Assembly (NCBI GenBank): GCA_951406725.2
Contig: OX597827.1
Coordinates: forward strand, 62,062,001-62,126,000
Direction of reading: 5' to 3'
DNA from: Octopus vulgaris
Taxonomy: Eukaryota
Length of the DNA: 64,000 nucleotides
The position numbers and the translations under genes are program-made. Below, one piece after another: positions 3,038 to 58,061 of this stretch. Every line of letters begins with the position of its first letter. The stretch's first letter is position 1. The notes beneath the pieces are model-generated. The model did no database searches, had not been told where the DNA came from, and saw only the letters and a list, made by a program, of their open reading frames with translations.

Positions 3038-3113
<76 letters not shown>

Positions 3114-3117
<4 letters not shown>

Positions 3118-3503
3118 TGACGTATATCTGCCATTTGAATATGGCTAACCCCTAAGGGTGGATGCTACTGTAGTTTGTAGCCCCAGGAAGACACCTCCTC
3201 CAGCTGGCTATAGACACACTTTCTGTGCCCTATCAGTATCTGTGAAGGGAAGTCATCCTTCCCGTCTTCAACTTATGATACACACGGACTCGAGTTTCAA
3301 GGTATTGACCTATCATCGGCGTGTGACAATCATAGTTGTCGACGAGAAGTCAGTTCCCCTCACAAATACATATACTTTTTCCAGTATCGATTGACACTGA
3401 TATTGAAAAAGTGAAATCAAACAATGATAAATCTCAGAGCGAGTTATAAACAGTAGCGGCAACACATCGTGACGTATATTTGCCATTTGAATATGGCTAA
3501 CCC
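3114..3503 (-). mobile_element. Retrozyme-like element A: 352-nt unit plus 38-nt terminal direct repeat, containing a hammerhead ribozyme
   Basis: ATCGTGACGTATAT(C/T)TGCCATTTGAATATGGCTAACCC at 3114-3151 and 3466-3503 (period 352); flanked by TA; internal HHR and long stems. Confidence 0.8.
3281..3325 (-). ncRNA. Type I hammerhead ribozyme, U4C core variant
   Basis: Minus strand CACACG-CCGAUGA-U-AGGU(CAAU)ACCU-U-GAAAC-UCGA-GUC-CGUGUG: 6-bp helix I, 4-bp helix II, palindromic helix III (ACUCGAGU), GUC site. Confidence 0.85.
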
Positions 3504-3749: not shown

Positions 3750-3910
3750 GTATTGTTTACCTTATTTACATTATTTACATTTGACGGATATTTGTCCTCA
3801 TCTTGTTTGTTGTTAACACAATGTTTCGGGTGATATACCCTCCAGCCTTCATCAGGTGTCTTGAGGAAATTTCGAACCTGGGTTGTCATTCCTAAAGTAT
3901 TTTTCGATGT
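3750..3910 (-). mobile_element. Penelope-like terminal repeat fragment with degenerate minimal HHR (3815-3860)
   Basis: Near-identical to 5540-5660; minus strand GACAC-CUGAUGA-A-GGCUG...CACCC-GAAAC-AUU-GUGUU. Confidence 0.75.
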
Positions 3911-4031
<121 letters not shown>

Positions 4032-5519
4032 TCTGTCATTAGATTGCGACCATTCTGGGGCACCGCCTTGAATGATTTTTGATGGACTAAATCGAACCTA
4101 GTACTCATGCATATATTTTTTCAAAGACTGATATTTATTTTACAGGTCACATAATAATTTGCTCACATAAAGACAGAGACAAAATGACGCAGATAGATAC
4201 AGAGAAGATGGAGGGGAGAGAAACGTTAATGGATTGAAATATTAAAACGTTTAATGCCAAATAAGTCAACGTGAAATAAATGACACCAAATAGGCGGAGC
4301 CTCAAATGCTGTGCCGAAACCTCTCATACCGCCATTCGCAACATCTTGCAACGAAGACGAAGTTCAGAGCAAAATGTGTAGACTCATCGATGAGAATAGA
4401 AAGAGGAAGAAGTGGACTTGAGCAAAAGCAAACAGTGTGATGGACACCTTCAATTATTGGTCATACAAAGCAAATACTGGTGAACGTTCAGATAACTATA
4501 TCTGTATTTTAAACAGTGGAATGTGCTGTGCCAAGCATAGAAACAATTATTTGTCAAGTGGTTACTGTGAAAGTGGTTGTGTGATAAAAGAGATTGAGAG
4601 GTCTGCAGATAAGGATTTATTTTCTCCAACCAAGCCATTATCGACTTCTTCAAGTGGTGCTCAAAGAGGAGGGAAAATGGTGGCGGATAACTAAACTGCC
4701 GTTCTTTTATCTTTTGTCATGTTAAAACCATTGCACTGCGGCCATTCTGGAGCACCACCTTTATGGGTTTTAACCGAACAAATCGACAACTAGCTCTTAT
4801 TTGTTTTGTTTTTTTAAAGTCTGATACTTATTCTATTGGGATGTTATTGCCGAACTGCTAAGTTACGTGGACGTAAACAAACCTGTACCGGTTATAGAGC
4901 AGAAGGGGCACAAGTACACATAAATACAAATACACACACATACAAACATATGTATGTGTGCGTGTGTGTACGTGCGTGTGTGTATGTATATGACGGGCTT
5001 CCTCATAGTTTCCGAAACGACGTGGTTGTAAAGCAAGATACTCAACCACATATTATACTTGTGATATTTTATTCTTTTTCTTTCTTTGACTTTCTTTTAC
5101 TAGTCTCAGCTCGAGTGCTACGGCCATGCTGGGGCATGTTTCATTCAAAAGAAAAAGCAACAAAAATATGAAAATAATGAATAAAAAATAAGATAAAAAC
5201 AAAATCAACTATTAAGAACATTTTAAAATCCCTTCTACTTTTAACTGTTGGTGCAAAGCCTGAAATTTGGAGGGAGAGAGGGAGGGCGGGAGGAAAGGAG
5301 CTAGTCATGTACTTTGACCCCAGTGCTCAACTGGTACCTATTTTATCGACCCCGAAAAGATGAAAGGTAAAGTCGACCTCCGTGGAATTTGAACATTCTA
5401 AAATAACCACTTTTAAGAAGGAGGAAAAAACAAACAATTTAAGACCTACATAAATGACTGCGTGCATTGTCATTTTGCAAACAAAATAAAGAAAAAACAA
5501 ACAAATTTATCCTCTTCTA

Positions 5520-6750
5520 TGTTTAAGAGATGAGGAATTATGTACATTATTTACATTATTTACATTTGACGGGTATTTGTCCTCATCTTGTTTGTTGTTA
5601 ACACAACGTTTTGGCTGATATACTCTCCAGCCTTCATCAGGTGTCTTGGAGAAATTTCGAGGATAGTCACATGACTGGTCTTAAAAAATTTTGTAGGTTT
5701 CCGCTATGTCCGTGTGTTAGTATGAAGTGAAAATGTTTAGCGTCGTAATTTAAGGCTGACACGGTTGACTGAAGATGTCTAGTGGTAATACTAAACAATC
5801 AATGCTCTGAATGTTTTCTGCTAAGTGTTTGTAGAGAATGAACACGTGATTAAGTTTAGAACTTTCTATACGCTTCCCGTTACGTACGTGCTTAGTGTCA
5901 CATGGCAGAATATTTTGCCCCTAAAATGATGGCTGACACGGTTGAGTGAACATGTCTAGTTACAATCAAGGCACTTCAAATTTAATCTGTTTGGTGGGAG
6001 AGTTGACAAGAGTCATTTATATGTAGTCCAGTGGTTAAAGTTTAGGTTGTTAGCTGTGTAGGTTCCTCATGTTAAGTGGCAGAATGAGTTTTATGTGTGA
6101 ATAGTTATTTGTGTATGTACTTTGTGAAAGTTTGTTAAGTATTGGTTTGTACTTTTGTATGAAAGTATTCTCTTTGTTTATCCGTGCTACATCTGTGGTT
6201 TTCACTGAACATAGGCAGGGTGGGAAGACCTGGAATTTAGGGGACTTATTTTTTGCACATATGTCTATGTGTCTACTCAGTGCAATCTGTCTAGTACTGG
6301 GGTCTCGTATTTGTTGCCGGTGGATGGCCAGTCTATTTCTTAGAGTAAGATTCGTTTGACCTATTTAATCTTCATGATATCCTTGACATTTGATAGCGTA
6401 AGCAAATTCCTTGAAGAACATGTAAAATGATTTTTAACGGTAAAAATCTGTCCTGAGTTGAATTTGTATGATGTGTCTTCAATAAGATTGACGCAAGTCT
6501 CACAATTGGGGCGGCCACATTTTTTGACTGTTGGTGTAGGAGTTGTGGAAGGTAATTTAGTACTTTTTTTTGAGAAACTTTGATTGTCTTTTGATTTGAT
6601 TGTTTTGTGTATTTCGAATGCTTGTTCCATTCTTGGGTCTTATCTTAGTAGTGGAATGCTCTGGTGGATAATATTGTAAACCACTGTGTTTCTTGGGTTT
6701 CTGTGTTGTAATAAAGGGTAGAGTATTGGATGTACCTGTTCTACCTGTTC
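5520..6750 (-). mobile_element. Penelope-like element 3' fragment: frameshifted GIY-YIG endonuclease, 3' UTR and terminal HHR
   Basis: ORF 6361..6630 has CGRPNCETC...FTVKNHFTCSSRNL. It continues out of frame as GQTNLTLRNRLAIHRQQI...LSRHIDIC...KENTFIQKYKPILN, the CCHH plus GIY-YIG signature of Penelope elements. Confidence 0.9.
5600..5645 (-). ncRNA. Minimal type I hammerhead of the Penelope terminal repeat (G12A decayed)
   Basis: Minus strand GACAC-CUGAUGA-A-GGCUG...CAGCC-AAAAC-GUU-GUGUU; helix II GGCUG/CAGCC; palindromic AACGUU. Confidence 0.75.
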
Positions 6751-6995: not shown

Positions 6996-7272
6996 ATTGC
7001 TTTCTAATATAGGCACAAAGCCTGAAATGTTGAGGTAGGAGGCTATAGTCAATTACATCGACCCTAGCGCTTAACTGGCACATAATTTATCAACCTCAAA
7101 AGGGTGAAAGGCAAAGATGACCTCGGTGGAAGACACTTGCCAAAGGTGTCCTGCAGTGGGATTGAATCCTGAACCATGTGGTTGGGAAGCAAGCTTCTTA
7201 CCATAAAGTCTCGTCAGCTCCTGGTCACTTCAGCAATGTAATTACACACGTGCTATTGGGGATTTTTTCTCC

Positions 7273-7305
7273 TTTGCGACGAAGAGCTATGCTCGAAACG
7301 TTAAA
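7273..7305 (+). ncRNA. Diverged minimal HHR (family H2)
   Basis: UUU-GCGACGA-A-GAGC(UAU)GCUC-GAAAC-GUU-AAA; core positions 3-4 mutated. Confidence 0.6.
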
Positions 7306-7575
7306 TACACTTTTTACTGAGCGTCAACTTATACATTCCTTGTGCACGTCCACTTATTATTGTTGATTTTATTGTTCGTTTATTTGATTTGACTACACAC
7401 ACACACACACACACACTTACACACATGCACACACACACACACACATGCACACACATATGTGATGGTGCTTTGATAACCAGCGTTGCTTTTTACAATTATG
7501 TAAATAATAATAATAGTATAATACTAATAATTTATAAGCTTTAAGTTTATAAAATACTATTAATACACACACACA

Positions 7576-8419: not shown

Positions 8420-8600
8420 CTAACCACTACACATTCTTTATTTTCTCTCCTTGTTTCTTTCCGTGTTCCTTTCTGTGGAAGAGCGTAGGCTCGAAACGTT
8501 AAAGACTTTTTCATTTCCCGAGCGTTATACTAAAACATGTTTGTTGTCTACACCACCTGACTTCGTCATTTTGTTTCTTTTTTTGGTGAATTCTCTCTAT
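8420..8600 (+). mobile_element. ~190-bp repeat family H2 carrying a minimal HHR with A6U (8469-8504)
   Basis: CUUU-CUGUGGA-A-GAGC(GUAG)GCUC-GAAAC-GUU-AAAG; homologous copies at 47975, 59983 and 60162. Confidence 0.8.
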
Positions 8601-32885: not shown

Positions 32886-33300
32886 AGGCGGCGAGCTGGC
32901 AGAATCGTTAGCACGCAAGGCGAAATGCTTTGCGGTATTTCGTCTGCCGTTACGTTCTGAGTTTAAATTACGCCGAGGTCGACTTTGCCTTTCATCCTTT
33001 CGGGGTCGATTAAATAAGTACCAGCTACGCACTGGGGTCGATACAATCGACTTAATCCGTTTGTCTGTCCTTGTTTGTCCCCTCTGTGTTTAGCCCATTG
33101 AGGGTAGTAAAGAAATAGGTATTTCGTCTGCCGTTACGTTCTGAGTTCAAATTCCGCCGAGGTCGACTTTGCCTTTCATCCTTTCGGTGTCGATAAATAA
33201 AGTACCAGTTTCGCACTGGGGTTAATGTAATCGACTTAATCCCTTTGTTTGTCCTTGTTTGTCCCCTCTATGTTTAGCATGTTGTGGGTTGTAAAGAAAT
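32886..33300 (+). mobile_element. SINE family S2, internally dimeric
   Basis: One head followed by two copies of B box, core and tail. Confidence 0.9.
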
Positions 33301-33784
33301 ATATATGTTTCTTATATATGTTTCTGTAACTGTACTAATACCTACAAAAACAAACTTATCGATGACAAAAAGAATAATCACAATTAAAAAGAAAAACGAA
33401 AAATTTTATTATGTTCTCTGATAAAACAAATAACGTTTATGAAGTGGAAGATAACATCTATAAGCAATTATTTAATAATATTTTCTATAATTACAAAATG
33501 ACTGCAGTTAACATACAATAATGGAAACAGTGAGGCAGAAATTTGAACCAAATTAGATAATTGGCAAGATTATCTAGGCGAGACTGTCTAGGCACGAATT
33601 TGAACCGAATAAAAAAGTAGATAACACACTCTAGGCGAGTCTATTTCGTACATTACGCTTAAGGGCCACAAAGAATTTTGCCCCGACAATAAAATGCTTA
33701 ATTAACCTCGCAAAATGTGAAACATGATTAATTCGCAAGATTATCTTAAGCGATATGAATAATTGCTTCTCACATAAGATCAAT

Positions 33785-34346: not shown

Positions 34347-34929
34347 ACAACAGTAACAGCAACAACAACAACAGCCACAACAACAACAACAACAACAATA
34401 GCCAGTCTCATTGCTTTACCGTTTCCATGTTTTAATCTACCTCCTACTTCTCTCGTCTCTCACCTCCACCTCCCACGGTTTCTTTTAAGCTATTTCTCCC
34501 CCTTTTTTTCCCCGAGTAAATCTCTTCGTCTTCTTCTCCCTTCTCGCCTGCTATTCTCCATTCCTTTCTCGACGTCAAATATCTATTAACTTCCTCCTAA
34601 CTATTATATGTGTTCAGCCAGCGTTAACATATTTAATGCAAGCAGTATATGTATTTCCAGTTAGCTTTTTAATGCTCGTTGCATTAAACGTGTTAACAAA
34701 ACTTTATTGGTTTTTCATGATGATGGCATCTCCGAATTTTTATTCTCTGAACAATTCTGTGTTCCTATTCCCACCAATGTACAATATTCTACATTTATTT
34801 AGCTAATCTTTCACCACTATTTCGGCGAAGTACGGTGAAGTCTATGTCTCGGTGATGAGGATAAAATATGGGTAGAAACATATTCAAAGTTATCACTCAT
34901 AGTTATCGAAAGTAATAACCATTATTATT

Positions 34930-35910
34930 ACTTTTACTTTAATCATGAAAAGGCGGTGAGATGGCTGAGTGGTTAGCACGCCGGGCAAAATGTTTACCGG
35001 CATTTCGTCCGTCATTATATTATGAGATCAAATCCCGCCGAAGTCGACTTTGTCTTTCATACTTTCGGGGTCCATAAATTAAGAACCAGTGAAACACTGG
35101 GGTCGATGTAATCGACTAGTCCCCTCCTCATAAATTTCAGGCCTTGTGACAATAGTAGAAAGGATTATTTTTACTTTAATCATAAAAAGACGGGGAGATG
35201 GCTGAGTTTTTAGCACACCGGGTAAAATGCTTTAATGGCATTTCGCCCGTCGTCACGTTCTGAGTTCAAATTTCGCTGATGTTGACATTGTCTTTCATCC
35301 TTTCGGGGTCGATAAAATAAGTACCAGATGAATACTGGGGTCGATGTAATCGACATACTCTTTCTTCCGAAAATGCTGACCTTGTGCCAAAGTTTGAAAT
35401 CATTATTAACATTAATTTAATCATAAAAAGGCGGCGAGCTGGCAGTATCGTTACCATGTCGGACAAAATGCTTAGCGGTTCTTTACGTTCTGAGTTCAAA
35501 TTCCGCGGAGGTTGACTTTGCCTTTCATCCCTTGAGGAGTCGATAAAATAAATGCTAGTCAAGTCCTGGTGTCGGTGTAATCGACTTGCCCCTTGCCTCA
35601 AAAAGTTCTGGTTCTGTGCCAAAATTCGAAACCAGGCGGCGAGCTGCCAGAATCGTCAGCACGCCGGACTAATGCTTGACAGCATTTCATCTGTCTTTAA
35701 GCTGTGTTCAAATGCCTCCGACGTCGACTTTGCCCTTCGTTCTTTTGGAGTCGATAAAATAAGTACCACTCAGTCACTGGGGTCAACGTAATCAACTAGA
35801 CTCCGTCCTCCCTGCAAAATTTCAGACCTTCTGTCTATAGGACAAAGGATTATCATTATTACTTTAATCATAAAAAAAGCGGTGAGGTGGCAGAATTGTT
35901 AGCACGCATT
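34930..35910 (+). repeat. Tandem array of ~4 S2 SINE units (~230-245 bp) plus a truncated fifth
   Basis: TTTAATCAT(A/G)AAAAG-G(C/A)GG junction recurs near 34937, 35175, 35416 and 35863. Confidence 0.8.
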
Positions 35911-36183
35911 TTCAATTTCATTTCCTCTACAGCCCTCCATATATATATATATGAATAGAAATATTAACATTTCTAAATCTCTCTAAAGGAGACTACGTCA
36001 CCGGTACTGGATATTAATACTTATCGCCAAGCTAATATGGCCGTCCAGGAAAATAGGACGAATGCTACCGTTGATTAGCTCCAAGAGCCCATCGCCTCTA
36101 GCTAGCTATGTGACACACAAACCTGTGTCCATTATAACCTTCGAACAGGAGAAGTCAACAGCTTCCCCTTCATGGTTTGAAAA

Positions 36184-36224
36184 CCACAGACTAGTTTCGG
36201 AGTAGTTGCCCCTTATGAATGTGG
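36184..36224 (-). ncRNA. Minimal hammerhead, U3-A8 variant with additional G5C
   Basis: Minus strand CCACA-UUCAUAA-GGGG(CAACUA)CUCC-GAAAC-UA-GUC-UGUGG. Confidence 0.75.
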
Positions 36225-36491
36225 AGTAGCCGAACCCAACAGGTGTCGCTGCTGACCGTCTGTTCGAAGGATTATTTACCTAAATTCAGTGGAATACACC
36301 CATTGGTTTTCTAAAATAGAAATATTAGCATTTCTAAATCTCTCTAAAAGAGACTAAGACAGCGGTACTGGATATTAATAATTATCGCCAAGCTAACATG
36401 GCAGTCTAGGAAAATAGGACGAATGCTGCCGTTGATTAGCTCCAAGACGCCATCGCCTCTAGCAAGCTATGTGACACATTGATAAGCTACT

Positions 36492-36532
36492 CCACATTGA
36501 TAAGGGGCAACTACCCCGAAACTAGTCTGTTG
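36492..36532 (+). ncRNA. Minimal hammerhead, U3-A8 covariant core
   Basis: CCACA-UUGAUAA-GGGG(CAACUA)CCCC-GAAAC-UA-GUC-UGUUG; palindromic ACUAGU helix III. Confidence 0.82.
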
Positions 36533-36599
36533 AATGTCAAACCAGCAAGGTGAAACTGCCGACCTTCCCTGTTCGAAGGTTATAATGGTCACAGCAGTC

Positions 36600-57220: not shown

Positions 57221-58061
57221 ACGTATGTCGACGTCATCGGTTCCATCGGAACCGGTCGGTGTACTTTAGAAACTTTCCATTCATGCCGCGTGTATAATAA
57301 CCAAGTTCCAGTGCACTAACATACGAGCTTAACTAACACACGAGCGCCCAGAGTAGCTGCACCAGCGGCACGAACTGAACCGTTCTGTACCTTACGAACC
57401 GGTTTCAAATCTCGACTAAAATTCATTCGGTTCAAATGACGAAAAAAAAAAAGAAAACAGAAGAAAGAAAAAAAACGGATAACCGTAACATAATGGCAAA
57501 CAGCTTCCCGGTTTATCGTCTGTGGTAATCATGTACCTAAAGATGAATGGAGCTATAAACGTCAGTGGCACTGTCCTGTATAGGACGCCACACCTGGTTG
57601 GCAATTATATGTTACGATTCCGTATTGCTGTGGAGGCACATGGCCTAGTGGTTAGAGCAGCAGACTCGCGGTCGAGGGATCAAAAACGGCCAAAATCACA
57701 TTTAAGAGAAATCTTCAAAAGGAATGAAAAACAAAAACTTTTACCTTGTTATTGTAATTCGGTCAGACCTAGATTTCAAATTTTTTTTAGCAAATAAAAT
57801 AATTTGCTAGGCGAAATTTCTCATTAGTGACCTCACCATAACACTACCATATAATTAAGAGATGAATAACACGTGTCTCATCGTTATACATTATAATTTT
57901 TCAAATTCACCGCGCAAGCGCAGTTTCAGTTGGCAGTAAATAAATGAATGCCGAACTAAATTTTTAAAAATTGCTAAATATACATAAAATATAGGGTAGT
58001 GAGTTTTTTTTTTTAGAAATTTCACTACCAGTGGCCTAGCATGTATAAAGAGTCAATAGAG

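Follow-up and report, generated by a model that had tools for sequence, protein, structure and literature searches.

The structured domain shared by two short repeats of the Octopus vulgaris genome is probably a folded RNA head, the site at which a Penelope-like reverse transcriptase-endonuclease binds in trans and starts copying internally. Helices P3, P4 and P9 of this fold are shown to be under selection, and there is evidence that the repeat family is mobilised in the manner of Penelope, in the form of two fixed 3' ends, partial tandems and inverted copies. The repeats, termed elements A and B, were analysed in a window of 64,000 nt (contig OX597827.1, 62,062,001 to 62,126,000), and all coordinates are positions in this window unless a locus is named. 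An initial annotation had offered three roles for the domain, namely RT recognition, a processing or promoter signal and a second ribozyme of opposite polarity, of which RT recognition is likely the best fit by position, polarity and tail helix.

Elements A and B and their repeat family

Sequence comparison located all five parts named in the initial annotation in both elements, at the positions and in the order it had given. Element A (3116..3503, minus strand) comprises one unit of ~352 nt and a 36-nt partial repeat, with its 3' end 1 at 3116 and a (TA)n target array at that end (3041..3115, unstranded). Its domain, read on the minus strand, consists of the P2 hairpin (3213..3229; GGCACA/UGUGUC with a G-U pair in RNA sense, + strand GACACA/TGTGCC), the P3/loop/P4 stem-loop (3178..3210), the 5' strand of the long-range helix P9 (3164..3171, RNA ACAGUAGC), the P5 hairpin (3148..3159; + strand ACCC/GGGT) and the P6 hairpin GCCA-N8-UGGC (3130..3145; + strand GCCA/TGGC). 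In P3/loop/P4, UAGCC/GGCUA is followed by a 4x3 internal loop AGCU/UGG and a covarying P4 of 6 bp; the corresponding + strand letters are TAGCC (3178-3182) with GGCTA (3206-3210), the loop strands CCA (3183-3185) and AGCT (3202-3205), and the inner stem P4 (3186-3201). The motif ATGCTAC(T/C)GT, taken at first for a single-stranded element, is ATGCTACTGT in A (3162-3171, + strand) and lies at 36062-36071 in B; it proved to be one strand of P9. The remainder of A, also on the minus strand, holds the Penelope-type tail, bounded by the two 3' ends (3420..3467, with hairpin P7 at 3433-3443 and the P9 3' strand at 3450-3457), hairpin P8 just past end 2 (3382..3399, by eye) and a rod-like stalk with the hammerhead at its tip (3233..3372; arms ~3233-3286 and 3320-3372), the stalk being predicted on sister copies.

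Element B (35955..36478, minus strand) is likewise a unit with a partial repeat, its tail at 35955-36010 and its domain at 36026..36129 (P6 36026-36041, P5 36043-36059, P9 5' strand 36063-36071, P3/loop/P4 36076-36108, P2 36112-36129). The P9 partner and the hammerhead core of this copy have decayed, and some of the letters listed as shared by A and B are private to it: most B copies have AGTCC rather than CGTCC and ATGCTGCCGT rather than ATGCTACCGT, often AACATGGC. An inverted, truncated B copy with an intact UUGAUAA core lies at 36486..36594 (+ strand), and a 3' fragment of subfamily D at 57549..57629 (+ strand) retains the P3 3' strand, the P9 5' strand, P5, P6 and the start of the tail. 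The subfamily of A is young (best 40 of 2,141 first-look candidates 96-99% identical) and that of B older (best 40 of 2,632, 86-90%).

Both elements are high-copy repeats in the 2.8-Gb genome and belong to at least 11 subfamilies of ~350-nt non-coding repeats, up to about 50% (0.51) apart. The P3/loop/P4 stem-loop pattern has 7,294 exact genome matches versus 0 for the reversed control, and the P5/P6 pattern 5,413 versus 5. Further subfamilies were found by similarity, model and pattern searches, and those missing both patterns may be unseen; 163 of the 164 copies spanning hammerhead and domain fall in 11 subfamilies and one is left unassigned. Read in RNA sense, the unit begins with the hammerhead cut and one stalk arm, continues through P2 and P3/P4 with their AGCU/UGG loop to a linker, P5, P6 and end 1, and then passes from the tail and end 2 into P8, the other stalk arm and the hammerhead; the domain follows the cut and precedes end 1. 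Most insertions among 60 mapped loci are partial tandems, accompanied by inverted truncated copies and frequent (TA)n flanks, and runs of three units at 353-nt spacing occur among the listed pattern matches.

The element class is already known, being that of the metazoan non-LTR retrozymes, described as 150-450-nt non-coding repeats with a type I hammerhead and GC <50% (Cervera and de la Pena 2020, PMC7229834), with target duplications >4 bp and a highly self-paired unit, of 350-390 nt in mussel (PMC7229834; bioRxiv 10.64898/2026.07.22.740005). The octopus family agrees with this description in a type I hammerhead per unit, tandem units of 341-365 nt (25 natural repeats), a non-coding sequence (longest ATG frame of one A unit 57 codons sense, 83 antisense) and a GC content of 0.42 in the same unit. 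It differs from the retrozymes described in the accessible text of these sources in its mostly dispersed insertions of 1-3 units, its inverted copies and its two fixed 3' ends, a direct mark of integration by Penelope. A structured domain with phylogenetic support and a helix to the tail is not described for metazoan retrozymes in that text. Searches of the open literature turned up neither this fold nor a helix formed with the tail, though the RNA fold in Fig. S2C of PMC11167929 may already show the latter.

The stretch occurs in 20 of 24 listed rows of sequencing runs, under 4 organism labels; the rows listed contain contigs only and no RNA record with it, and contigs of 4 runs contain the family, giving no strand, start or level. 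A metagenome scan with the motif pattern gave 0 matches.

Other repeats share the window. Another abundant minimal-hammerhead family, with stem III CG and no domain, is present at ~7270-7400 and 8470-8600 (both + strand; also at loci L041, L052, L132 and others), its U-rich 3' part of ~90 nt ending on a microsatellite. Tandem units of 184 and 238 nt at 32934-33301 and 34927-35443, with more copies around the window, resemble a tRNA-derived SINE. The whole-window Rfam comparison returned microsatellite look-alikes among the 150 of 410 matches listed, and the microRNAs mir-297, mir-466 and mir-3149 were rejected as microsatellite artefacts below gathering score.

Polarity, fold of the unit and selection on helices P3, P4 and P9

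A type I hammerhead lies in A at 3278..3327 (minus strand; match to our own descriptor 3287-3319), with the core CCGAUGA...GAAA, a palindromic stem III CUCGAG and a predicted cut between 3287 and 3286. That of B (36181..36227, minus strand) has stem III CUAG and the core UUCAUAA, where the family core is UUGAUAA. The descriptor also matches A, B and D copies, and the core columns across subfamilies are conserved or have C3-G8/U3-A8 exchanged. Rfam models score neither the hammerhead of A nor the domain; the best matches on A and B (16.5 and 16.1 bits) are far below gathering, not meaningful and outside the domain, which bears out the suggestion of an RNA motif as far as it lacks an Rfam class.

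The family RNA is most likely the minus strand, in hammerhead sense, and not the + strand on which the domain had been read; two A-C mismatches of A on the + strand become G-U pairs on the minus strand. G-U versus A-C changes between subfamilies stand at only 6:4, so pairing alone leaves the strand unfixed, and polarity is assigned from the hammerhead and the 3' ends, together with the folding energy, which is lower for the sense strand in 25 of 25 repeat units, z-scores favouring neither strand.

In a highly improbable reading P3/loop/P4 is a second self-cleaving ribozyme, possibly twister-sister-like and on the + strand, which would permit RNA-to-RNA rolling-circle copying. The + strand of B reads GCUCCA...AGCUAG across the internal loop, a partial match to the twister-sister-like G7 C8 U9 C10 A11 A12/G36 C37 U38 A39 G40, in which the covarying pair would be the 9-39 pair (PMC11620745, as far as its accessible text goes); the antisense unit also folds well (z=-4.0). 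Against this, position 11, the cleavage-site A of twister-sister, is C in 11 of 11 subfamilies, an extra A is present, P1 is unpaired in register, the GCU is altered in subfamily I and the strand is opposite to that of the hammerhead. Rfam ribozymes are absent at E<=10 on both strands, the sense strand has the lower energy and the genomic ends fit internal RT initiation, which makes the opposite-polarity ribozyme raised by the annotation unlikely.

The natural cut-to-cut unit folds with z=-5.6 in sense and is predicted to form a rod that is tipped by the hammerhead and ends opposite in a branched head, made up of P2, P3/P4, P9 with P5, P6 and end 1 inside it, and finally P7 and P8. Units of A2, E and H give the same predicted outline and G the same stalk. 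The domain had been placed outside the ribozyme; it does not stand apart but forms the head of one predicted fold extending over the whole unit. In P9, ACAGUAGC, the RNA sense of ATGCTAC(T/C)GT, is complementary over 8 bp to GCUACUGU in the tail, and the two strands change in concert, as ACGGCAGCA/UGCUGCCGU in B, CAGCAACA/UGUUGCUG in H and ACAGUAAC/GUUACUGU in E. This helix encloses P5, P6 and end 1 and joins the domain to the tail; it is present in the minimum-energy fold of young copies and is not predicted in the RNAalifold consensus of the alignment. Since a copy stopping at end 1 lacks the partner strand, P9 requires tandem or circular RNA.

The eight paired letters of P6 are the commonest letters in 10-11 of 11 subfamilies. 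P5 is retained as a stem in most subfamilies with shifting sequence and register, and is weak in F, while the P8 stem is retained with differing sequence in A, B, D, E, G, H and I (by eye). Three structural candidates were rejected: a hairpin GCUAC/GUAGC in place of P3, which is the minimum-energy form in A only without the tail and is lost in E, F and H; a palindrome (CCAGCTGG, CTAGCTAG), broken in F (CCAGCTAG) and in part of G, with two pairs changing independently; and a purine at the P3 closing pair, with 2 matches, both in decayed copies.

The homology of A and B extends from the domain across the hammerhead, so that their likeness alone is ancestry and selection needed a separate demonstration. 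Because copies decay after insertion, changes between subfamilies were set against private changes. The alignment consisted of 41 natural copies that retain the tail, with no subfamily contributing more than 5 and with the P2, P3 and P6 motifs as a filter; one copy of 42 was left out for a tail deletion. A model of 30 pairs has 93.1% of cells paired versus 89.2 in shuffles and 33-44% in slid controls, and 73 double-change cells versus 27.6 (0 of 500 shuffles); counted by pair, a double change occurs in 8, which is no excess over shuffles. In P9 alone, 90.3% of cells are paired and double-change cells number 33 versus 11.8.

Against a tree-based null, one of the 30 pairs is significant alone, and just among the proposed pairs: P4 pair 42-58, which ranks first of 12,403 column pairs (E=5e-4 within the 30 proposed, 0.19 when all pairs are considered). 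Values of p=0.007-0.012 are reached by three P9 pairs and a further P4 pair, and combined by helix the p-values are 3e-4 for P9 and 1e-5 for P4. On the tree, 17 pair changes between subfamilies keep the pairing and 7 break it, against 18 kept and 36 broken on terminal branches (p=0.003); among private changes in a larger copy set, 98 leave the pair intact and 158 disrupt it. Double compensations make up 7 of 23 pair changes between subfamilies versus 1 of 54 among decaying copies (p=7e-4), which supports the claim of a selected RNA motif. Between:terminal changes are 32.5:61 in paired columns and 183:118 in other columns, so that relative to terminal decay paired columns change ~3-fold less than unpaired ones. 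The seven loop positions show one change between subfamilies, though subfamilies E, F and G were found by a pattern that fixes the loop and copies were filtered by motif, so that loop and stem invariance is partly built in; the internal loop had been called invariant, and this description fails in subfamily I, with AACU for AGCU.

These results meet the view that the likeness of A and B reflects shared ancestry and chance pairing only, which is now most improbable and already largely refuted. The homology of A and B beyond the domain, the invariance of most pairs and the low power per pair are in keeping with it; the excess of double compensations, the depressed rate between subfamilies and the combined p-values of P9 and P4 speak against it.

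Covariation likewise bears on the very improbable reading of the domain as a signal at the DNA level, such as an internal promoter. In its favour, tandem retrozymes need to be transcribed, TAGCCAGCTGG bears a likeness to the tRNA A box, and subfamilies B, G and H have GTTCGAA, which is similar to a B box. However, the first G of 'GG' in TAGCCAGCTGG varies G/A/U together with its stem partner, the behaviour of a paired base, while GTTCGAA lies upstream of the A-box-like site, is missing from the A clade and is paired in the predicted stalk. ARAGORN found a tRNA in 0 of 9 loci, and a tRNA-derived SINE with a Pol III type 2 promoter was rejected, there being no B box after the A-box-like site and no tRNA-like head; the promoter option is not supported.

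3' ends and autonomous Penelope-like elements

Copies that stop after P6 end in two clusters in 143 of 152 cases across 10 subfamilies: 67 at +8 to +20 nt after P6 and 76 at +52 to +78, with 3 between the clusters and 6 elsewhere. Target duplications of 8-14 nt occur in 11 of 58 A and B loci, some merely AT-rich, the other loci lying in microsatellites or showing no duplication. A (TA)n run follows the end in 26/48 copies of subfamily A, 11/15 of G and 0/24 of H; it also follows 48 of 53 Neptune-type ends, is thereby common to retrozymes and the Neptune type, and is rare at the Poseidon-type ends listed. Subfamily H (L183-L201), which lacks (TA)n, may have a different endonuclease partner.

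A GIY-YIG search of this genome recovered open frames of 781 aa with RVT_1 and GIY-YIG behind an upstream frame, in copies 98-99% alike, and a distant query a second, older RT-endonuclease clade. We presume these to be the clades Neptune and Poseidon, names assigned from motifs and not from a tree. Each of the two autonomous types has a pair of 3' ends together with a long-range helix. That of the Poseidon type is 9 bp long (AGAUGAGGA/UCCUCAUCU); it encloses end 1 and takes its partner strand from the tail, the geometry of P9 (by eye), and was seen in one family with G-U variants only. In the Neptune type a 13-bp helix of AGCAGCAUUUUCG and CGAAAAUG-CUGCU encloses both ends and covers the start codon of the upstream frame, its partner lying beyond end 2, unlike the P9 partner in the tail. 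Covariation predicted beforehand in a Neptune sister family was borne out by the run-through copies, 2 of 41, as C-G to U-A and G-C to A-U (two double changes) and A-U to G-U. A likeness of ~10 nt between the Neptune 5' strand and the P9 linker profile, noticed post hoc, reaches p<=0.003 in one family and 0.05 in the sister Neptune family, with none in 6 others.

Several further observations concern these elements. Poseidon-type terminal-repeat fragments with their own hammerhead lie in the window at 3762-3863 and 5506-5649 (both minus strand); the first stops at end 1, and the second has the tail and both GAUGAGGA/UCCUCAUC helix strands. The core variant UUGAUAA (U3-A8) of subfamilies B and G also occurs in the Neptune-type terminal repeat (L088, L104), as does the stem III CAUG of subfamily G, while F has the core UUGACGA. 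In the Neptune type (L101, L104 about 490-615; L253, L266) the upstream start codon lies inside the helix 3' strand, and translation and reverse transcription could therefore compete for one structure. A short repeat with repeated hammerheads at L102:5330-5700 (stem III UUGGAACCAA; 1,714 first-look candidates) was rejected as a Neptune-type terminal repeat, being a neighbouring insertion beside the L102 copy.

Model searches found the domain as separate insertions only, both in 50 Neptune-type and other endonuclease-bearing sources and in 30 Poseidon-type loci, and gave 0 matches in 80 Penelope-like loci of other organisms. A Neptune-type ORF was absent from 188 sequences outside the 34 PLE loci, and a tblastn partner search gave one weak match, 1.3 kb from a B copy. 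No terminal repeat homologous to the unit was present in the autonomous elements examined (the best-scoring PLE loci), in contrast to the 24 of 57 Xenopus families in Li, Clavereau and Pollet 2026 (bioRxiv 10.64898/2026.07.22.740005), who propose retrozymes as non-autonomous Penelope derivatives and whose accessible text covers no mollusc.

Tail, inversion and (TA)n bias have been described for Penelope-like elements (PMC8557442). The family resembles the endonuclease-bearing members in AT-rich or (TA)n targets, inverted 5'-truncated copies and a minimal hammerhead with palindromic stem III, and it shares with Poseidon PAc the order hammerhead, structured region, start 1, tail, start 2 (PMC11167929; clades PMC8557442). 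As far as these sources could be consulted, it differs from PAc in having no ORF, ~170 nt from cut to end 1 (PAc ~90), a tail of 45-60 nt (PAc 30-40) and the extra helices P2-P6.

Candidate role of the domain in reverse transcription

For the Anolis element, copying on AT-rich nicked DNA was located to two internal start sites, one on either side of the tail, of which the first lies in a stem-loop; the authors put a protein-binding motif in 172 nt spanning both starts (PMC11167929, accessible text). The octopus domain matches this binding region in position and is tied to the tail by P9, and it is on this account that it is read as a cis signal for mobilisation in trans; we infer binding of the domain by the Penelope protein. 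In such a scheme tandem transcripts would be cut and perhaps circularised, the protein of an autonomous element would dock on the head and nick AT-rich DNA, and priming either within the P9 loop, at end 1, or past P7, at end 2, would yield copies without or with the tail, respectively.

An unlikely, though weightier, competitor than those above accepts the fold as real and has it bind a host factor or protect a small linear or circular RNA (stability, ligation, export or germline delivery), the RT starts being set by short local signals and P9 merely compacting the RNA. The autonomous ends are much simpler and lack P2-P6, so those parts are extra and may serve something besides RT, which keeps such a role viable. 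It would also suit the strong folding of the unit (z=-5.6) and the accumulation in vivo of retrozyme circles, for which the authors suggest a block on the ribozyme that does not come from self-pairing (PMC7229834, in part). Yet the most conserved part adjoins end 1, P9 straddles end 1, and a comparable helix stands at the same place in autonomous elements, all of which speaks against this reading.

Tentatively, a wider reading can be put beside the template signal: a helix pairing back round the first start, with the tail supplying or leading to the partner, might be a general signal of endonuclease-bearing Penelope-like elements. On the same doubtful footing, retrozymes might have elaborated this signal into a high-affinity junction that out-competes autonomous RNA, in a role like that of the telomerase junction. 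The CR4/5 three-way junction of telomerase RNA, which serves an RT of the sister clade, has a helix closing the junction and a short hairpin with a conserved stem; the octopus head resembles it, by analogy only, in these two features. It has no sequence or Rfam match, and neither template nor pseudoknot was seen. Telomerase RT is placed as sister to the Penelope-like RT clade (PMC8557442, accessible text).

The family has a bearing on the choice of RNA by Penelope-like reverse transcriptases, which are sister to telomerase, and on the reason for their two internal starts. The mover of animal retrozymes has so far been argued from co-occurrence and sequence likeness; here there is genomic evidence of Penelope-type mobilisation. 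The proposed structure is given at the level of residues, with natural compensatory variants, and carries the prediction that the tail helix sets the start site, and the head may prove to be a portable RNA signal for Penelope-based gene writing.
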